A stretch of 62,956 bases of DNA, counting the filler, from Stramenopiles sp. TOSAG23-2 (lineage: Eukaryota): NCBI GenBank assembly GCA_900128395.1. It is 27 parts of 27 records of this genome, joined end to end, with 100 filler letters (N's around TTAATTAATTAA, not from the genome) between each part and the next. Parts side by side here need not be neighbours in the genome. Positions count along the whole stretch, not along the records: positions 42,125 to 44,354 come from LT651914.1; 26 more parts are not named here. One strand, written 5' to 3'. The first letter of the stretch is position 1, and every line of letters begins with the position of its first letter. This document shows, piece by piece, positions 1-60,734 of the stretch. The position numbers were made by a program, and so were the translations under genes. The notes beneath the pieces are model-generated. The model saw nothing but the letters and a program-made list of their open reading frames with translations, was not told the origin of the DNA and did not search any database.

Positions 1-380
1 GATGGAAGCAATAGTTACATTCCATTAAATGATAATGTTGGAAATGGCGTATAATATCATAACTCACAACTCACACATCGTGTTAAAAATGGAAGATGAT
101 CCAAACAATGCCAATTGCAATTGGGTTTGCCCAGCTTGCGCCTCATACGAGCGTCCTCGTACACATTTTAAAGATCCAAATAATACGAGTAATTATATTT
201 ATAAAGATAAAAGTAGTGGTTCACCAACCTGGAAAACATGTTCAGATAATTTGTGTACACGGAAGATCCATTTACTAGCATATGTTCTGCAGTTGAAAGT
301 GGTGATTCGAAATTAGGCATGTTGTGTGCTTCTCGACAGATCATTTCATTTTAAAAATTTTAAAACTAGTACATCAAATA

Positions 381-880
381 TTACAAACAACTCTTAATAT
401 TATTATTATTACTTTTGTTCTTCCTTTCATTTTGATTTTTTGCAGATAATTCCCCATAACTTTCATCACCAACAACGGGTGTATCGACAAGAACGGCACA
501 TGCCAATGCTGGTTTCTCATCTAAACATACCCATTCATGATTTGTTGCACGTTGAATAACAACATCAAATTGCTTTAATTTCGTTGTAGATCCATCATCT
601 AAATTTAATTCCACATTTGAATCAGATAATATGACAATATAATCAATCGTCGGTGTTTTATGCCTTTATTTCAATGTTTTTTTTTTGGTTTTATTTGTTC
701 GTATTATTTAAAATATCAAAATATAGGTTTTATTATATTTTAAATTATAACATGTGTTAAAATAAAAATTTAATAATAAAAGAGTATATATAGAGACGAA
801 TAACTTACATTCCTGGATTTTCTGTTGTTCCTAAATGTTCATGTTCAGTTCCCATACTTTTAAATGCATTTTTCGCTCGT
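381..880 (-). CDS. Cupin-domain protein, spliced, 5' end unresolved
   Basis: Intron 664-808 (GTAAGT...AAAG). Splicing gives ENPGM|HKTPTIDYIVILSDSNVELNLDDGSTTKLKQFDVVIQRATNHEW, matching the cupin pattern MHxTxTxDY...LxLDDG...DVVxQRxTxHxW. Ends -SCL. Confidence 0.8.
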
Positions 881-1169
881 AATATACAAATTGTTAAGAT
901 ACGGTGTATATGTATCTGTCAGCAATGAAAATATAAAATAGATTTTTGTTTTATAATGAATTAACGATTGATTATTTAGGATATTATGTTTGTAAAATTT
1001 AAAAAAAAATAATTTTTCTTGTCTTTTCTGGAGGATGGGTTATATATACAAAATACCCACTCATTTTGTCCACCCCATCATTTTCATTTTTCATCAATTT
1101 TCAACAAAAAATGATGGCGTGGAAAAATAATACCTAAGATATAAATTGGTAAGAGAAGGGTGTCGAATG

Positions 1170-1441
1170 TAAGTTTTAAACACACGGGAAAAGGATCGCG
1201 TCGTTAACTGTAAAAAGTCATGTTCATTAAAATCTACATCATAATAGACCTCTACTCTCCAACTCCATTATCTTGACCATTTACACAGTCAAAGGCTTCA
1301 CATCCTAAGTTTTAAACACACGGGAAAAGGATCGCGTCGTTAACTGTAAAAAGTCATGTTCATTAAAATCTACATCATAATAGACCTCTACTCTCCAACT
1401 CCATTATCTTGACCATTTACACAGTCAAAGGCTTCACATCC
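1170..1441. repeat. Exact 136-bp tandem duplication (probable assembly artefact)
   Basis: 1170-1305 is identical to 1306-1441. Confidence 0.9.
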
Positions 1442-1761
1442 ACACCCACAACCTAATTGAGGATTACTTTCGACTTACATCACCAATCACTTCAATTTTG
1501 TAATACCATTTTCCAGATGTTCAACTTTTATTATAATACGCATATTTTATTATCTCATTTGCTTATTCCATACTTGCATCATCTTCATCGTCTGAAGAAT
1601 CATCATTATCATCAGTACAGTTACTACCAAATAAACTATTAAACGCATTTTTGTTATTACCAAAAAAATCTAATGGAGCTTCTATTTGTATTTTTTAATA
1701 TTCAGGTGTATAATATTCTTTTCACAATTTTTTTTATATATAAATAAAATAATAATATTTT

Positions 1762-2696: not shown

Positions 2697-4188
2697 TTAC
2701 ACTGTTATTTTATCTACGAGCGTTTGTACCCCTTCCATAAACGGCGTCAAACTAAATGGAATTCGTTTTAAATCCTCTTCTTCCAACTGCCCACCATGTG
2801 AACGCCATGCTTCAATTGTACTTGCAATCACCACGCGATCACGCTCGTTGACTTCATGGATGTTTCCAGAAGTAACAGTAGTCACAAACTGTCCATGACC
2901 GGAAGCCCTGACAAATTCGTTATATTTTTGTATCCGTGGATGCCTTCCACATCCATGAAAGCAACAAGAATCCCATTCATGTAACACTTGCACTTGGGCA
3001 CGTTCTGCCTCAAGAGATGCCAAGACGTAAAGCGAGGTGTAATTAGCAACCATGGCCCACGGCTGGTCGCAAAACTGTTCATAATCCCAACTTGTATGAG
3101 CAAAATCACATGGTATTGATCCAGCAACTGGAATAGACAAACCTATTCTTGTATCAATTGCACTTGCCATATGGGTAGTGAATCCACCTCCGGAAAGTCC
3201 AGCCATGACAATCTTTTCATACCCAATAGATTTTGCATAATTAATGGTCAACCAAACAGGCTCAATGAAAAAACGCATAAATGGAAAACTATCTGAATTT
3301 ATTCCATCCTTTCCAGCAAACTGAGCAAACCATTCGTGGCTCTTTGGATGAAGAGGATCCTTAGCATTGCACCCACGAAATGGCATTTGTAAATGCATTA
3401 CATCAAAGCCTATAATTGGTTATTATTGAACAAAAAAATATATAGATGTGTTTGTGTGTGTGTTAAAATGATGTTAGATTTATTTTTTTCACATTATATT
3501 ATTATAAATAATTATTAGTGTTATAAAACCTACCTAAACGATTGAACCAATCTACCGTCTCCTCTACATCATAGTGACATCCGTTTGTCACAGCATGGCC
3601 ATCATGAAAAATAACTAATGTATCCGATTGCCTCAATGGTGGTTGAGAAGGGTAAGGCCACTGGGCAGTTGGTGTAGGTGGTTTTTCTGGACCATGGTTA
3701 TATTTAAATTTCTCTGAATTACCTGTAGCAACACCACTTGTATTAAGGGAATGAATTACCACACTTGAAAGGTCAACAGACCCAAAACTTTCATTAACAA
3801 AAATGGACATGTTCCAACTAAAGGTTGTAGCATTTATTGGTTTTGCACATGTACTTGCAGGGCATTCTCCACGAAGTAAGCACATGCAATTTCCAAACAC
3901 CACAGGCGTGGTGAAAGGTGTTGGGCCAACATCTGGCTTTATTCGAGTAGGTGGTGAGCCACCCCCCCATAATTTTTTAATAAGATTTGCCCGTGCAGAG
4001 ATCCAACTTTTATAACTCCCATCATGAGGTAATGGAGAAAATGGTTTGCATGTTTTATTATTTGTTTTTCCATCACAAACATCAGGAAATCCAGGAGAGC
4101 CATTAAAAGAACAATGATACGCTGCAATTACTTTTGCAAACACAAAAAATATTATCAAAACGATATACCAATTATTCAATATATACAT
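2697..4188 (-). CDS. Secreted alpha/beta-hydrolase-fold protein (two exons)
   Basis: Exons 4188-3534 and 3409-2697; intron 3410-3533 (GTAGGT...ATAG) joins NRLG|FDVMHLQMP in frame. Hydrophobic signal peptide, nucleophile elbow GLSGGG, downstream Asp (WDSCCF) and His (NIHEV). Confidence 0.85.
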
Positions 4189-4701
4189 TTTATTTTCTTA
4201 TTCTTATTTATTGAATTTATAAACAATAAAAAGACCCAAAAGAAAAAAAAAAAGAAAAAGATTAGACAAAGAAGGTATATATACAACAGGTATATCACGT
4301 AAAAAAAATATTCATATACAATATTTATTCTGCTTTTTTTTTGTTACTAATATACATATATATATATATAAACAAAACAGCAATGTATAGTTCTTCGTAT
4401 TAATATCACAATTTATATCCTCTGTTGTCGTCTAAATTCATACCAACATCATCCAAAAACTATAAATATTAAAATCTATATAAATGAAATAAATAAGCAT
4501 CATAATATCTTTTTTGGCAACAACTTTGCATATATATATGTGCCGAAAAAAAGCCGAAAAAAAGATATTTCCCTATCAAAAGTATAGCTATATTATTGCA
4601 CNNNNNNNNNNNNNNNNNNNNNNNNNNNNNNNNNNNNNNNNNNNNTTAATTAATTAANNNNNNNNNNNNNNNNNNNNNNNNNNNNNNNNNNNNNNNNNNN
4701 N

Positions 4702-12191: not shown

Positions 12192-12656
12192 TTATAATTT
12201 ACTTTTAATTTGTTTTGCGTTGTTAATATCCGATTCACCATCTTTACTTCCTAATACTTCCGGTAAATCACGATCACTATTTGGATCCATCATGACTAAT
12301 GCACCTTTTAATTTTCCCTCTCCAGCATGTGATACAATATATTGCATTTGTTCAATAACAGCACCTTCGGCATGAGGGGCACCAGCTGGTATAATGACTT
12401 TATCACCTGCTTCCACTTGTAATTTTTCTCCATCACCGGTTAAAAAATAGGTCTTTCCTGCTAAAGCATATGTTACAATATCGACAGGATGATAATGAAA
12501 AGGTAATTCGTTTTCAGTGACTGGTGATGTTAAAGGCCTTGATTTAAATCCATTTTTTATGACATCTGCTTCTACATCTTCTTTTGTTTTAAAGAAATGT
12601 TTCACTACTCTTACTTTTGGCATTTCATTGTTGGTATTATTGTTACGTTCCGCCAT
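12192..12656 (-). CDS. Cupin-domain protein with PTS1 (-SKL)
   Basis: PFHYHPVD...YALAG...GDKVIIPAGAPHAE two-motif cupin; C-terminus IKSKL. Confidence 0.8.
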   Translation of the reverse strand: MAERNNNTNNEMPKVRVVKHFFKTKEDVEADVIKNGFKSRPLTSPVTENELPFHYHPVDIVTYALAGKTYFLTGDGEKLQVEAGDKVIIPAGAPHAEGAVIEQMQYIVSHAGEGKLKGALVMMDPNSDRDLPEVLGSKDGESDINNAKQIKSKL

Positions 12657-26703: not shown

Positions 26704-26828
26704 NNNNNNNNNNNNNNNNNNNNNNNNNNNNNNNNNNNNNNNNNNNNNNNNNNNNNNNNNTCTGGCATCTAAATAGATTAAATTAGTAAATTCATTTAAA
26801 TAATCGGGCAATTCAGTACAGAATTAAA
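26636..26828. other. Internal scaffold gap with duplicated 68-bp flanks and chimeric junction
   Basis: 26636-26703 = 26761-26828 on either side of N 26704-26760; the sequence then switches to an opposite-strand ORF. Confidence 0.8.
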
Positions 26829-41076: not shown

Positions 41077-41907
41077 TTAATCTGTTTGAATGTTAGGCCA
41101 AGTATTCTTCTCGTAGAAATCGCGGCCTGATAAACAGTTCAGACCTTCTCCAACAATGCGATCATTAACAAACGTTTCCACCATTTTACTTGTTATATTG
41201 GACGACGAAACAAAATTAGTAAACATCCTCCCAGTGTTTGTGACGGTGCACGTATTATTCAGTTGGTTGATCACCGCCGAACCTCTGGACCAAGCCAACA
41301 AGGCGTTGTCCGTGGATAGCGTCACATTGACGTACAAGAACGCTTCGTCGGAACACGCTGGTGTCCTTTCCGACCAAACAATATTTCCAGTGCTGGAGGA
41401 AAAAGGAACGGATTTTGGATTGATTCCGTTCACCAATAAAATGAGAGTATCGTCTCTTGCATCTGCGAGAAACGCGACAGCGTTTCGAAAACTGGGATCG
41501 TCGCAACTGTTCGATTGCTGGTAGTAACAATTGCCTGCCTGTGCGCTGTAGAACGTGTAAAGTCCTGTGGCGTTGCAAAATATTGCCTCAAACGCTTGTA
41601 AATCTTGCGAGCCACCAATCTTTCGCATTGCATACGTTTTCGTGTTGCCATCCATGTGAGCTTCAGTGAAGTAACCGTAGGGTGGAGCGACGAGTGAAAA
41701 ACTTGTAGGAAAGGAAGGAGGTGAACATTCCTTCGAAGGCCCCCAGGCACATTGCGGCAGGTGAAACTCGCAATCGTGCTGGTCGAGGCCCGTGCAGTTG
41801 CTCTGCGGCGCAACGCCGCCCGTGCAGCACGACGGATCCTCGGCTTTGACACACGTTGCAATGCATGCTGTAGCAAAAATGGCGTAGCAGGTAAAGACTT
41901 TATTCAT
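41077..41907 (-). CDS. Secreted Cys-containing protein with anomalously high GC
   Basis: Signal peptide MNKVFTCYAIFATACIATCVKA; small Cys-rich N-domain; complete ORF. Confidence 0.75.
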   Translation of the reverse strand: MNKVFTCYAIFATACIATCVKAEDPSCCTGGVAPQSNCTGLDQHDCEFHLPQCAWGPSKECSPPSFPTSFSLVAPPYGYFTEAHMDGNTKTYAMRKIGGSQDLQAFEAIFCNATGLYTFYSAQAGNCYYQQSNSCDDPSFRNAVAFLADARDDTLILLVNGINPKSVPFSSSTGNIVWSERTPACSDEAFLYVNVTLSTDNALLAWSRGSAVINQLNNTCTVTNTGRMFTNFVSSSNITSKMVETFVNDRIVGEGLNCLSGRDFYEKNTWPNIQTD

Positions 41908-42294
41908 TAAAATTATTTATGTTAAAATACTTCTTTAAATAAAATCAATTCAACCAGATGAAGGTAGCAGTAGTTGTCAAAATTGTTTTAAATGAACATG
42001 AACTTGGTTTATTGTTTGAATGTGNNNNNNNNNNNNNNNNNNNNNNNNNNNNNNNNNNNNNNNNNNNNTTAATTAATTAANNNNNNNNNNNNNNNNNNNN
42101 NNNNNNNNNNNNNNNNNNNNNNNNGCTTAAAACTTTCTAATAATTCCACCAAAAGATATATGTAATATCCATATATCGATATTATACCAGGCCCAGGCAG
42201 GCATACAGCGAGAGAGAAAGAGAAAGAGAATGAAAGAAAACAGATATATATATATAGTCATATAATTAATCAATTTTTTTTTTTTTGCATCAAC

Positions 42295-44094
42295 ATGCCG
42301 CAAGATGGACAAGGAAGATGGCTTGTGCAAACTGATCGTTCAGAACTATGGATGTATACATTATCAGAAAGTTATGAACCTGGTGAAATAATTCATATAC
42401 ATGCTTCAAGTACTATTTGTAGATCTTTCCAGGTAGATATTGTACGTGATGGTAAAATTGTACATACTACGGAGACTATTTCAGTCAATTTTCATAAAGC
42501 ACCAACCCGTGCATTTGAAACTGGTTGTGGCTGGCCCGAAGTATATCAATTTAAAATTCCGAATGATTGGCCATCTGGTTTTTATATTATGAACGGACGT
42601 TGTGTTGGTCCAAATAATGACGCGGGACTGAATGGACCAGCATTAGCTGAACATTTTTTCGTACTTCGACCGTCGTTAAGTGACGATAGAAATTTGGTAA
42701 CAAAACATATCAATGAAAAACGTATATTATTAATTTGCAGCACAAATACATGGACGTCATACAATAATTGGGGAGGTGCAAATCATTATGCCTCCTTTGA
42801 GAAAACTGGTAACCCACGTTTACATTATTCCGATGAAGGGTTTCAAGTTCCTATGGAAGAAATCATGGCAGGGAATACCATTTTAAGTAATTGTAGACCA
42901 TATTCACCGGGAATGGTCACATTGCCAGACGGTTATCCGCGCCTTCCCTATAGTGCATTAAACGCTCCGAGTGAAATAAATAATGCTAGTGTCATACGCA
43001 ATATGATAAGTTTAGAAGGCGTTGATCGTGGTGTACTTGGTGGTCAGCAAAAAGCAAGTTCATGGTGCCAATCTACAGGATGGGCGAGTTATGAAAGATT
43101 TTTCTATGAATGGGCTGTGAAAGATGGTTATAAAGTGGATATGATTTCGAATAGAGACTTACATCGATATGGACGTAAGATTTTAGATCATTATAAAGTT
43201 TGTGTTTGTATTGGACATGATGAATATTGGTCTAGTGGTATGCGAGATGAAATTGATGGTTACCTTGATGATGGTGGTAGAGTTGCACGATTTGCAGGTA
43301 ATTTTTATTGGCAAATACGATATGAAGCAGATCCAAATGCACCAAAAGATGGAGCACCGAGGCAAATTTGTCATAAATATGGAGCCGCAAAAACCGATCC
43401 AGTTATGGGTACGAAAGATCAACATTTATTAACATATGAATGGGAATCTCCGCTGATTGGTAGACCAGGATGTGAAACATTTGGTTTAAATGGAGCAATG
43501 GGTCTTTATGCAAGATGGTTGCGGTCGAACCCGGCCAACCCCGGTGGATTTACCATATACAGGCCACAACATTGGGCTTTAAAAAATTCAGGATTATGTT
43601 ATGGCGACATGTTAGGTGGAGCGGCACAAGATGCTGTCATATTTGGATTTGAATGCGATGGACTTGATTATAGGATAGATGATGGAGTTCCTTTTCCTAC
43701 TGGTAATGATGGAGCTAACGTCGAAGCGACAAGAATTATAGGCATTGGTTTATGTGATAATTCAGGGTTACCAGGTGATCAAAGGTTAAATGCAGCTGTT
43801 AGGTATGGGAAAACACCGGATGAATTAGCAGGTGAGAATCTAAGTAAGGAAATGTTGAAAAGAGCTGAACGTGGTAATGGTATGATTGTCGAATTTTACA
43901 GAGGCAAAGGACGTGTCTTTCATGTAGGATCGACGGAATGGATCGTAGGACTTCAACAGCATCGTTCAGATCCAACACAATGTAAATCAAAAATGGTTGA
44001 GGTTATTACACAAAATGTATTGAATCGATTTTTAGATATCAAGCCGTTCGGTACAACATGGGATGATTTTGGTGAGACAGTTGCAAGACTTTAA
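42295..44094 (+). CDS. N,N-dimethylformamidase large (beta) subunit-family protein with PTS1 (-ARL)
   Basis: GCGWP...IPNDWPSGFY, STNTWTSYNNWGGANHY, GWASYERFFYEWA...GY, IGHDEYWS, ARFAGNFYWQIR, GGFTIYRPQHWAL...LCYGD, GFECDG, GRVFHVGSTEW, ITQNVL. Confidence 0.85.
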   Translation: MPQDGQGRWLVQTDRSELWMYTLSESYEPGEIIHIHASSTICRSFQVDIVRDGKIVHTTETISVNFHKAPTRAFETGCGWPEVYQFKIPNDWPSGFYIMNGRCVGPNNDAGLNGPALAEHFFVLRPSLSDDRNLVTKHINEKRILLICSTNTWTSYNNWGGANHYASFEKTGNPRLHYSDEGFQVPMEEIMAGNTILSNCRPYSPGMVTLPDGYPRLPYSALNAPSEINNASVIRNMISLEGVDRGVLGGQQKASSWCQSTGWASYERFFYEWAVKDGYKVDMISNRDLHRYGRKILDHYKVCVCIGHDEYWSSGMRDEIDGYLDDGGRVARFAGNFYWQIRYEADPNAPKDGAPRQICHKYGAAKTDPVMGTKDQHLLTYEWESPLIGRPGCETFGLNGAMGLYARWLRSNPANPGGFTIYRPQHWALKNSGLCYGDMLGGAAQDAVIFGFECDGLDYRIDDGVPFPTGNDGANVEATRIIGIGLCDNSGLPGDQRLNAAVRYGKTPDELAGENLSKEMLKRAERGNGMIVEFYRGKGRVFHVGSTEWIVGLQQHRSDPTQCKSKMVEVITQNVLNRFLDIKPFGTTWDDFGETVARL

Positions 44095-44454
44095 CACTGT
44101 AATAAACAATATAGGATCATATTGCGCATATTTTTCATTAAATTTTACTAAAAATAGTATTTTCTACCTAAATTTTTGATTTACATGTACCATCTCATGG
44201 ATTTTTCAATTCATTACATGAAAACAAAGGAAAAACATTGAAAATACCTTTTTAAACTTAGGCTCCACTAGTATACTATTTTTCCTATCAATTGGCAAAA
44301 TAATTTTGACATTTCACGTTTTCAGAAATTAGGGATAGCAGAATTTTAAGCATTNNNNNNNNNNNNNNNNNNNNNNNNNNNNNNNNNNNNNNNNNNNNTT
44401 AATTAATTAANNNNNNNNNNNNNNNNNNNNNNNNNNNNNNNNNNNNNNNNNNNN

Positions 44455-46682
44455 TTTAACTTATGCGATGTACTTGTTGCGCTACTATCAAAGCTGTTAT
44501 TGTTAATAGCGCTACGACTTGGTGATCCATCCTTTTGTTGACCTGTTTGTACAAACAGATCTTTACGTATTTCTTCTGATGTTGGGCGATTCGCTACATT
44601 ACGTTGAAAACATTTTAACAAAAATGATCGCAAAACGTTTGTGATTTCATTTTCAGCTGGTAATACTGGCATCGTGCCTGGATTTTTTAAGATATGAGTG
44701 CAAAGAGCTAACGGGTTATCAAATTGAACCCATGGCGCTTCACCAGTAATCAACTCCAATATTGTAGCACCTAAACTCCAAATATCTACTTTGCGACCGT
44801 ATGATTCTTGCCCCAACATTACTTCAGGTGCCATGTAACAAAATGAACCTACCGTTTCTACATTTTCATTTAACATAGTATGACTACCAGACATTTGTTT
44901 TGAGATTCCAAAATCAGCTACTTTGATTACATCATTATCATCAACCAAAATATTAGCTGGTTTAAGATCGCGATGTATTATACTTTCCCCATGAAAATAA
45001 ATTAACGCATCAATAATTTGTATGGTGTACTTCCGCATTATCGTTTCATCAAAAGGCCCATGTTTTTGTAATTTGTCTTTTAATGAACCACCAGAAACAT
45101 ATTCCATGATGATGTAAATACCAGAGTCATGTTTAATGGCTCCATAATATTTAACTATGTTTCGATGCTCTAATTTACTTAAAAGCAAAATTTCATTCTT
45201 CCAGCAATCGTCATTTTCTGGGATAAGTTTTACGGCTCTTGTTTCATTTTTAATCTCATTCACAGCACGGTATACAACACCAAATGTACCAGCATTTATT
45301 ACTTCAAATGTGTGCCATTCATAATCACCTATTTTACGCTTTATTTTTGGTTCATTTTCCAGTGCAACATGTTGTGGGTTGTTTTTTGGGACTAAAAGTT
45401 GTTTAAGTAGTTGTTTTCCAGGCTCTGATGATGCAGGAAATCTGTATTCACGTTCTTTGATGGTTATGTACGTTTCTTGCCCTTGCTTTAGTATATTTTC
45501 TAATTGTGCGTGTTTATCTTCTAATAGTCGTTGATTTCGATTGATATCATTTAAGTCGTCCGCAACTTCATTTTGAAATTGATCAACTTCTTCTACTAAA
45601 ACATCATGCTTTATTTCCAAATTATCTTGCTTCTTCTTTACATATGTAATTTCCAAATTATCTTGCTTCTTCTTTACATCTGTAATATCCATTTGAAGTT
45701 TGCTAAATAACAATTTATTATGTTTATCCATCTGCTGTACCTTTTTTGCAACGGCAGATATATATCTTTTTTGTTTTTTTCCCAGTATAGTTTGCCAGGT
45801 TTGATTTTTTTGCAATTCTTTTATACATAATAAATTTAATGAATTCAATGCATTTGTATTAATAACTAGACGTTTCCCAGGTTTGAATTTACCATTTTTA
45901 TCGACACGTTGATCAATATTATCTTTCGTAACTTCTGTTCCATCCTCAAATCGTACTAATGGCATGCCTGTTGCAACACCAACTCTCCATAAATCTTCTG
46001 CAATAAATCCTGCATCTAAATCATTTGATTTGTTCCATTTATATATATGCAGTGGTAGATCAACAATTTTATTTAAAATCTTGCTTGGACATTTTTTAAT
46101 AATAGTTTTTAATTTTGAGTCTGATAAAACTATTAATTGATCAGTAACAAGTTGGTTGAATGTCGCTTTATTTGCAATTACATTATTTGCCGAGACTCTG
46201 TCATGAATATAATCGATATCTATCAGTATATGCGGTGTATTGCTTGGGCCATTTTCGAACCCAACACGCGCTGTTGACATATCTTGGATGTTGGTATTAC
46301 CGAAACCCCAATTCTTTGCACTTCCGATAACAATTATTTCATCAAATAGTAGATCACTTGAAATTTTAATTTTCGCTTGCATATCATCAACATTTTCATC
46401 TCCATCATCTGTATAAAAAATTCTCCAATAATTCAGACGAGAGTGATTACGCTTGGTATTTGTACCAGGAATGTTTGTACCAAATGGTAATTGAGTATTA
46501 TTAAAATCAATTGGTTGATGATTTTTTGGTTGTTGAGCTAGTATTTGACCTTTTTTATTTACCGTTCGCCAATAAAACTGTCTATTGTCATTCTGGTTAT
46601 TTACGACGTTTAATCTTCCTTGTAAAGCTCCATTACATAGAATATAAAAACATCGCCATTTGGGAACTCCTCGATTCATAAT
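44455..46682 (-). CDS. Fusion of unknown N-domain, peptidase S74/intramolecular chaperone domain, coiled coil and STE/MAP3K-like kinase; both ends possibly truncated
   Basis: LSDSKLK...LNKIVDLPLHIYKW...AGFIAEDL...INTNAL...CIKELQK; kinase AGTFGVVY, AVK, EHRNIVKYYG, MEYVSGGSL, HRDLKPAN, DFG, GSFCYMAPE, DIWSLG, EAPW. Confidence 0.82.
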
Positions 46683-60634: not shown

Positions 60635-60734
60635 NNNNNNNNNNNNNNNNNNNNNNNNNNNNNNNNNNNNNNNNNNNNTTAATTAATTAANNNNNNNNNN
60701 NNNNNNNNNNNNNNNNNNNNNNNNNNNNNNNNNN

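Follow-up and report, generated by a model that had tools for sequence, protein, structure and literature searches.

The subject of this report is a gene at positions 42295..44094 (plus strand) of a 62,956-nucleotide stretch of DNA from the draft assembly of Stramenopiles sp. TOSAG23-2 (GCA_900128395.1); the whole stretch is hereafter called the window, and coordinates given without a further name are positions in it. The gene encodes a 599-amino acid protein of the DMFA2_C family, whose best structural counterpart is bacterial N,N-dimethylformamidase (DMFase), and its last three residues conform to a peroxisomal targeting signal of type 1 (PTS1). On balance, we favor the interpretation that the product is a single-chain amidohydrolase of the DMFase/acylase superfamily, probably peroxisomal, which was derived by horizontal gene transfer in a marine protist and which may act on a small N-acyl compound. 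The core of this proposal, namely that a bacterial gene became a nuclear gene of the protist and encodes a probably peroxisomal amidohydrolase, is credible.

Predicted fold and domain architecture

The open reading frame (ORF) is complete, from ATG to TAA, and without an intron, just as a preliminary description, made from the sequence alone, had stated. A Pfam search of the product returned a single family, PF20254 (DMFA2_C, the DMFase beta-subunit-like C-terminal domain; E = 1.9e-55; 189.3 bits against a gathering cut-off of 27), in which residues 59-556 of the protein matched positions 21-371 of the 374-position profile; an NCBIfam search of the 599-residue protein gave no match and no equivalog. 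The two motifs by which the gene had originally been assigned to the family of the DMFase beta subunit, TWxxYNxWGG and GHDEYWS, are found as TWTSYNNWGG at residues 152-161 and GHDEYWS at residues 307-313, and the Pfam match backs this assignment.

We built an AlphaFold2 (AF2) model of the protein on a 29-row alignment. The model (predicted local distance difference test score (pLDDT), 78.6; predicted template modeling score, 0.86) is of low confidence only at the termini and in two insertions, residues 160-185 and 213-261, which are eukaryote-specific. Comparison of the model with solved structures by VIA-align gave the highest scores for DMFase (6lvb, 6lvd and 6lve; Z = 27.7-28.2, 428-434 residues aligned, root-mean-square deviation 3.0-3.2, 20% identity), the best fit being 6lvd_A (Z = 28.2, 428 residues, deviation 3.0), and for N-acetyl-(R)-beta-phenylalanine acylase (Z = 27.4-27.6, 22% identity; 8huy_B, Z = 27.6). 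In the superpositions with these two enzymes, 410-434 residues were aligned. The next matches, to ThuA-like and GH42 domains, had Z scores of 12-15 (best, 14.7), and Foldseek agreed with VIA-align, giving E values of 6e-19 to 1e-16 for the DMFase/acylase superfamily.

The model predicts two domains. The first, of residues ~18-125 (42346..42669, plus strand), is an all-strand beta-sandwich of the macroglobulin (MG)/immunoglobulin-like type, with pLDDT mostly above 90, and matches the MG domains of complement C5 and alpha-2-macroglobulin (Z = 9-10 over ~95 residues). The second, of residues ~140-580 (42712..44034, plus strand), is a ThuA-like alpha/beta domain, presumed to be catalytic; it is homologous to domain III of DMFase (profile E ~1e-22). 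By its modeled fold, the protein is a member of the DMFase/acylase structural superfamily, composed of a sandwich and a ThuA-like catalytic domain.

Residues of the putative active site

DMFase of Paracoccus sp. DMF, as described in its structural report, holds Fe3+ by Y399, Y440 and E521; its H519A, N547A and E657A mutants are inactive, N547 being the oxyanion-stabilizing residue and E657 the proposed catalytic base (PMC7686228). We mapped these positions onto the protist protein and counted their conservation among 272 family members aligned to the profile, the denominators being the rows aligned at each position. Hidden Markov model (HMM) alignment paired Tyr156 (42760..42762, plus strand) with the Fe ligand Y399 (...AY(399)A against ...taYn; Tyr in 244/246), and Asn336 (43300..43302, plus strand) with N547 (Asn in 254/258). 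It also paired His308-Asp309-Glu310 (43216..43224, plus strand) with H519 and the Fe ligand E521, on the basis of the wild type against the E521A mutant sequence; His308 is conserved in 259/260 and Glu310 in 258/260. Glu453, which lies within G-F-E-C-D (43651..43653, plus strand), corresponds to E657 (Glu in 240/242); here, the E657 context G-G-Y-E-L-D was pinned by a 668-aa plasmid homologue aligned to the wild-type and mutant DMFase chains, and hhalign pairs GYEVD with GYEID at this site. Each mapped catalytic position is conserved in at least 98% of the aligned rows. The catalytic set, with five of the six DMFase residues mapped (Y156, H308, E310, N336 and E453), therefore looks intact, and the residues whose absence the preliminary description had named as evidence against an enzyme of this kind are present.

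The sixth residue is probably Tyr165, within N-H-Y (42787..42789, plus strand; Tyr in 240/244), which would serve as the second Tyr ligand in place of Y440. This assignment comes from motif spacing. The 668-aa plasmid homologue supplies the Y440 context Y-D-G-H-I-D-G-R-G-V-Q-Y-T-S-W-R-R-P and, by our own motif matching, Y165 lies at a comparable distance ahead of the invariant R201-P202 as Y440 does ahead of R-R-P. Two observations weigh against it: in hhalign with a 671-aa bridging homologue, the Y440 segment fell in a gap of the DMFA2_C-only family, with no confidence, and residues 160-185, around Y165, are modeled by AF2 with low confidence. The suggestion that the Fe ligands could be mapped onto the Paracoccus enzyme thus held for Y399/Y156 and E521/E310, which HMM alignment placed, and only tentatively for Y440/Y165. 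With the catalytic residues conserved, the protein most likely catalyzes an Fe-dependent hydrolysis of amides.

Bacterial relatives and phylogeny

A search of 5.8 billion clustered proteins returned 505 matches at E ≤ 1e-5. Among the best 120 of these 505, two are of eukaryote type. The top match, P0001, is a 99% cluster with 30 metagenomic members, and the second, P0002, is a EukProt transcript that is 61% identical, N-terminally truncated (510 aa) and terminated by -AKL; its cluster is labeled EP00746 Dinoflagellata sp. MGD. The other listed matches show 36-40% identity and are 520-590 aa long; those that carry a name are bacterial (Pseudomonadota, Chloroflexota). When 1.84 billion representatives were searched with a profile, the family numbered 9,360 members at a threshold of E ≤ 0.001 and 1,489 at the stricter E ≤ 1e-30, and the three best ESM-Atlas clusters shown were 97-100% bacterial. 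In a collection of genome contigs, relatives are encoded by 552 of 602 candidate stretches, and the 80 best are mostly from Alpha- and Gammaproteobacteria. These results agree with the earlier statement that the family is known mainly from bacteria.

We calculated trees under LG+G4 on 87 rows and under LG+C20+F+G4 on 37 rows, which were hand-picked to keep every major clade, with 50 left out. The eukaryotic pair (P0001 and P0002) formed a clade with a support of 100 in the Shimodaira-Hasegawa-like approximate likelihood ratio test (SH-aLRT) and a long stem (0.96 and 1.16 in the two trees), and it was sister to a bacterial group of P0003, P0004, P0005, P0006, P0010 and P0013 (SH-aLRT 99 under LG+G4 and 96 under LG+C20). 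A member of this sister clade lies on a 125-kb contig of 69% GC (locus L085). That a single eukaryotic clade is embedded in an overwhelmingly bacterial family is secure. Its exact position is less so: the approximately unbiased (AU) test did not reject an alternative topology that places the eukaryotic pair outside a group of all 31 ingroup bacterial rows (p = 0.298; lnL difference, 9.9), and this result, which weighs against our more specific placement, means that the particular bacterial sister or donor and the nesting within the subfamily are not secure. The phylogeny proposed in the preliminary description as a check was thus partly in its favor, by recovering a bacterial sister clade, and partly not, by allowing a more basal position for the pair. 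Its broader claim, that of a horizontal acquisition from bacteria followed by amelioration, is upheld by the bacterial character of the family, by the grouping of the pair with a bacterial clade in both trees and by the host-type codon usage described below.

Several insertions are common to the eukaryotic pair and absent in all 27 bacterial rows aligned. A short-protein search, which gave three matches, added P0428, a 122-aa metagenomic fragment close to P0002. It has a 20-residue insert, with Val first and Gln last, as expected of an in-frame read-through of a GT...AG intron, and so has the appearance of a third form of eukaryotic type.

The C-terminal tail and its PTS1-type end

The last codons of the gene specify Ala-Arg-Leu (44083..44091, plus strand) and are followed by TAA, as had been noticed before. 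The PTS1 consensus is [SAC][KRH][LM] at the C-terminus. The tripeptide closes a eukaryote-specific tail of residues 581-599 (44035..44091, plus strand), of which residues 595-599 have pLDDT below 50 in the AF2 model and are predicted to be disordered. To place this end among its relatives, we took the C-termini of 195 of 270 homologues (at least 480 aa, with the alignment reaching query residue 560), 75 being dropped as fragments or other architectures. Ends matching the consensus were found in 2/195, namely P0001 (-ARL) and P0002 (-AKL), and in 0/193 of the bacterial proteins. Tripeptides of this pattern occur at a background rate of 0.2% in proteins of the assembly and of 0.14% within the bacterial homologues. 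Beyond the last conserved helix, 20 and 18 residues follow in the eukaryotic pair, against a median of 3 and a maximum of 11 in the bacterial proteins (n = 112). The two eukaryotic tails are alike only in the final A-[RK]-L, and -ARL is kept in the four of four fetched members of the P0001 cluster that reach the C-terminus.

Two points raised in the preliminary description are thereby answered: the signal recurs in the other eukaryotic homologue, in what is a very small sample of two, and none of the 193 bacterial homologues compared ends in ARL. These comparisons support a PTS1-like end that is shared by the eukaryotic forms, is confined to them and sits on an added tail of 18-20 residues; they bear the signature of a tail that would have been gained and then selected for its last three residues. 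As the tail ends in A-[RK]-L, which is of the PTS1 type, we propose that the protein is imported into peroxisomes by PEX5.

The protein might instead be a eukaryotic but cytosolic enzyme, with a fortuitous or non-functional -ARL. Some of the residues that precede -ARL are acidic (D, D, E), and acidic residues ahead of a PTS1 can weaken import; moreover, the eukaryotic C-termini are only two in number and are mutually related. These facts count against import. Chance would nevertheless have to place a pattern of 0.2% frequency at the end of both eukaryotic sequences, which are 61% identical with otherwise differing tails, and at none of the bacterial ends, on a tail that is itself an addition. 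The same organism has other PTS1-like ends, -AKL on an alkylsulfatase-like protein encoded on a linked contig (L081 1-1464; see below) and -SKL on a cupin (12192-12656). We therefore regard a cytosolic location as unlikely, though worth bearing in mind, and retain peroxisomal import as the most likely fate of the protein.

The cupin just mentioned is a 154-aa Cupin_2 protein encoded at 12192-12656 (minus strand), on its own 2.2-kb contig. Its terminal -SKL is the textbook PTS1, and its sole NCBIfam match, to (R)-mandelonitrile lyase, is weak (21 bits against a cut-off of 140).

Structure of the window

The window consists of 27 contigs arranged in strictly falling order of length, from 2251 down to 2222 bp, and joined by linkers of the form N44-TTAATTAATTAA-N44. 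The runs of N accordingly occur as pairs of 44 around the 12-mer TTAATTAATTAA, with a spacing of ~2.3 kb (2252-2351, 4602-4701, ... 60635-60734 of window 1-62956). The linker is of the all-frame stop type and strings together size-sorted short contigs of a draft assembly, so that adjacency across linkers carries no meaning. ORFs that enter a linker acquire false ends such as ...LIN. A single run of 57 N, at 26704-26760, is a gap of a different kind.

The DMFA2_C gene is the sole occupant of a piece of 2,230 bp (42125..44354), which has an artificial linker at both ends, the one at 42025..42124 (N44 + TTAATTAATTAA + N44) separating it from an unrelated contig; the flanks of the gene on this piece are 170 bp on the 5′ side and 260 bp on the 3′ side. 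An Rfam scan of the contig gave no match at E ≤ 0.1. Since the linkers join separate contigs, the neighbors in the window are not physical neighbors of the gene. The window's kinase, ankyrin, CPSF_A, YEATS and LepA genes were considered as a eukaryotic context and ruled out, as they lie on other contigs; they tell only of the type of assembly and not of the surroundings of the gene. Arguments from contig context in the preliminary description rested on these concatenated contigs and cannot be maintained. Its remark that no small alpha subunit is visible on the contig is likewise uninformative, because the real contig is 2,230 bp long with short flanks.

Two of the proteins on the other contigs may be recorded here. 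The nearest named matches of the LepA/GUF1 protein, whose contig is not linked to the DMFA2_C gene, are from Telonema (58%), Hondaea (48%) and Cafeteria (47%). A 758-aa protein encoded at 44403-46679 (minus strand) combines Peptidase_S74 (the intramolecular chaperone of endosialidase), a coiled-coil-like repeat and a C-terminal Ser/Thr kinase domain.

Codon usage, a linked contig and RNA contigs point to a protist gene

At third codon positions, the gene has a GC content (GC3) of 0.23; of the other 29 ATG-initiated ORFs of at least 150 aa in the window, 28 have values of 0.13-0.35. The relative synonymous codon usage (RSCU) of the gene shows a correlation of r = 0.92 with that of 14 other ORFs from the same assembly, within the leave-one-out range of these 14 (0.74-0.94), and the RSCU of the bacterial sister-clade gene correlates with the assembly at r = -0.70. 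The host-like codon bias reported in the preliminary description was therefore reproduced, and the values support a codon usage that appears fully ameliorated to the host. The outlier in the window, at 41077-41907 (minus strand; GC 0.48, GC3 0.52), is a Cys-rich ORF of 276 aa whose N-terminus is hydrophobic; it had no match in Pfam or NCBIfam.

A scan of a metagenome collection identified 17 relatives among 339 pattern matches, the sole eukaryote-type one being on contig L081 (6,925 bp, GC 0.33), a separate record that encodes the identical protein (100% aa). Positions 4809-6925 of L081 match positions 42125-44237 of the window at 99.7%, and the match does not extend upstream of 42125, where the linker adjoins. 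In the part of L081 that lies upstream of the DMFA2_C gene are an alkylsulfatase-like metallo-beta-lactamase protein of at least 487 aa (1-1464, plus strand; Lactamase_B and Alkyl_sulf_dimr), a protein whose RbfA domain is preceded by an N-terminal extension, and a FAD_binding_3 monooxygenase gene (2802-4487, minus strand), which is divergent from the DMFA2_C gene across a 495-bp spacer. The monooxygenase gene comprises two ORFs separated by 126 nt that start with GTAAGT and end with CAG and whose removal preserves the frame; this gap has the features expected of a canonical spliceosomal GT-AG intron. The L081 ORFs near the DMFA2_C gene are AT-rich, and some are poly-Asn-rich.

Regarding the neighbors themselves, the FAD monooxygenase contains runs of poly-Asn as well as a Cys-x2-Cys ... 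Cys-x2-Cys segment in its N-terminal part. The alkylsulfatase-like -AKL protein is encoded 3.5 kb upstream of the DMFA2_C gene and is of bacterial type.

The DMFA2_C stretch is present in 20 run rows from 11 studies, which are marine where labeled, and six of these rows are RNA. Positions 42303-44194 are tiled without joints by RNA contigs of three studies, which come from four runs, three of them poly(A)-selected. These contigs read through the stop codon, with scattered single-base differences only; one, at 43810-44127, spans the -ARL end with no difference. The RNA contigs of all four runs gave no cover at 42125-42274 and were not used to locate a transcript start. RNA libraries may contain DNA, which weighs against reading these contigs as transcripts; they show the presence and contiguity of the gene, short of proven transcription. 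In RNA run X15, the contig word depth over the 3′ flank (44150-44354) is 170-640 compared with ~4-6 over the gene, which suggests the end of a highly expressed neighboring transcript or a repeated element.

These data bear on two other origins of the gene. It is alone on a short contig, its apparent eukaryotic neighbors are an artifact of concatenation and its near relatives are bacterial, all but one, as might be expected if the 2.2-kb contig were a bacterial contaminant misbinned into the protist assembly. Such a contaminant would, however, have to combine a GC3 of 0.23 and an assembly-like codon usage with a bacterial ancestry whose sister-clade locus, L085, is GC-rich; L081 ties the gene to an intron-bearing gene and poly-Asn-rich ORFs; and the gene occurs in poly(A) libraries and shares its insertions with a EukProt transcript. 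We consider contamination highly improbable. A location on some mobile element of the protist, such as a giant virus, rather than in the nucleus could accommodate the AT-rich, intronless sequence and its patchy distribution in one species-level cluster and one or two distant eukaryotic sequences. L081 is nonetheless free of viral hallmarks, carrying instead the RbfA-domain protein, the alkylsulfatase-like enzyme and the intron-bearing FAD monooxygenase, and the gene behaves like a cellular one in that population variants occur in many marine metagenomes; this origin, too, has very little to commend it. Thus, codon usage, linkage on L081 and the RNA contigs together make a contaminant or a virus unlikely as the source of the gene, and we hold to a nuclear gene of the protist.

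Comparison with characterized enzymes

The large subunit of Paracoccus DMFase (6lvb, 6lvd and 6lve; PMC7686228) shares its fold with the protist protein, which has equivalents of Y399, H519, E521, N547 and E657 and probably of Y440. DMFase, however, is a three-domain protein of 775 aa (~85-kDa), and the protist protein has 599 aa and two domains, with ~20% identity; it belongs to another subfamily, HMMER aligning the two in four short segments only. DMFase is bacterial and without a PTS1, unlike the protist protein with its -ARL. According to its structural report, DMFase requires a 15-kDa alpha subunit, with which it forms alpha2beta2, and its large subunit is inactive without the small one (PMC7686228).

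Among solved structures, the best sequence match is to N-acetyl-(R)-beta-phenylalanine acylase (8huy, 8i5a and 8i59; E = 9.8e-09 for the single sequence and 4e-22 for the profile). It hydrolyzes an N-acetyl amine, which is the class of reaction that we propose for the protist enzyme, and the PDB names one molecule only for its chains. The acylase is ~770 aa long and has HPEY where the protist family has HDEY, the active sites being compared by sequence only.

Closest in architecture are bacterial proteins of ~540 aa that consist of DMFA2_C only, for example that encoded on a Dinoroseobacter shibae plasmid (NC_009955.1 35854-37374; others are at loci L001-L080 and L085). They have the same two domains, 36-40% identity over ~95% of the length and all of the conserved residues, but no C-terminal tail, PTS1 or insertions of the eukaryotic pair, and their genes are GC-rich and in operons. 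These proteins are annotated by domain name only, and we know of no characterized member of this subfamily. The EukProt protein (P0002; EP00746 'Dinoflagellata sp. MGD' P142337) shares the insertions and, in its case, an 18-residue tail; it may be the product of the dinoflagellate's own gene or may come from another organism in the culture.

Bacterial gene contexts and the candidate substrate

We examined the gene contexts of 77 bacterial loci, many of which are close relatives. In 25 loci of 11 genera, a class-III aminotransferase gene adjoins the DMFA2_C gene, at a median distance of -3 bp (an overlap) and on the same strand in 24/25. Farther along, a gene for BKACE, a beta-keto-acid-cleavage enzyme, occurs in 20 loci of 10 genera, one for a GNAT in 21 loci of 8 genera and one for a histone-deacetylase-type amidohydrolase in 29 loci of 12 genera. 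As an example of the order, L002 7893-13394 carries the DMFA2_C-like gene, the class-III aminotransferase gene (overlapping the stop), and the BKACE, GNAT and histone-deacetylase-type amidohydrolase genes. As far as seen, this operon is an uncharacterized amino-compound pathway. An NCBIfam match of the BKACE protein to 3,5-dioxohexanoate:acetyl-CoA acetone transferase was set aside, as it says nothing about an amide substrate. The clades nearer to the eukaryotic pair have Dpp-type ABC importers as neighbors, and an RraA-like aldolase and a Dpp-type importer are encoded beside the sister-clade gene.

These contexts would fit the catabolism of imported amino or N-acyl compounds and not of a synthetic solvent. 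Because the relatives adjoin genes for Dpp importers or for aminotransferase, BKACE, GNAT and deacetylase, the likeliest substrate class, by analogy, is a small N-acyl amine or amino acid that is imported or formed in the course of nitrogen scavenging, rather than dimethylformamide.

The preliminary description had suggested a role in the catabolism of formamides or methylated amines, and a genuine dimethylformamidase (EC 3.5.1.56) serving formamide or methylamine metabolism would account for the common superfamily and catalytic residues. This suggestion fared poorly. The protist protein is ~175 residues shorter than DMFase and distant from it in sequence, it falls in another subfamily with the different gene contexts described above, no NCBIfam equivalog matches it, and the 77 bacterial orthologues have no conserved small ORF next to them, the largest cluster of the 16 small same-strand adjacent ORFs spanning 2 loci. 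A true dimethylformamidase is accordingly a poor candidate that we would be surprised to see vindicated. No alpha-subunit-like gene was found on the 2.2-kb contig or on L081. Since the DMFase large subunit alone is inactive, a missing partner subunit for the protist protein is possible, and this weighs against a single-chain enzyme. An amidohydrolase of small N-acyl compounds nevertheless remains our preferred assignment.

Proposed history and function of the enzyme

We propose that the ancestor of the gene moved from bacteria to the nucleus of an AT-rich, as yet uncultured marine protist. By homology with Paracoccus DMFase, the enzyme would contain a mononuclear Fe(III) held by the tyrosinates of Y156 and probably Y165 and by the carboxylate of E310, and H308, N336 and E453 would help a metal-bound water to attack the carbonyl of a small amide, yielding a carboxylate and an amine. 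After the transfer, the gene would have adopted the host codon usage and acquired, besides several insertions, a flexible C-terminal extension of ~20 residues with A-[RK]-L at its end, through which PEX5 most likely imports the enzyme into peroxisomes.

The 2-Tyr-1-carboxylate iron site of the DMFase superfamily is rare and, to our knowledge, two members of the superfamily have been characterized and solved, both bacterial. A literature search, with most subscription journals outside its reach, found no link of the dimethylformamidase family to eukaryotes or peroxisomes. A transferred bacterial enzyme with a PTS1 is in itself a known phenomenon; the family member and its proposed location are new. 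A eukaryotic branch with an intact-looking catalytic set and a gained PTS1 would offer a clean case of a transferred bacterial enzyme re-addressed to an organelle, and the single-chain protein a tractable route into the very large ~540-aa subfamily, with its 1,489 representatives at the stricter threshold.

More speculatively, the peroxisome of this protist may be stocked with several enzymes of bacterial type, the Fe-amidohydrolase, the alkylsulfatase-like -AKL protein and the -SKL cupin, that break down dissolved organics. The DMFA2_C enzyme would then deacylate small N-acyl amines, with N-acetyl-beta-amino acids or acetylpolyamine-derived amides as candidate substrates. We hold this wider picture to be doubtful as it stands; if true, it would provide the first function for the large ~540-aa branch of the DMFase superfamily.

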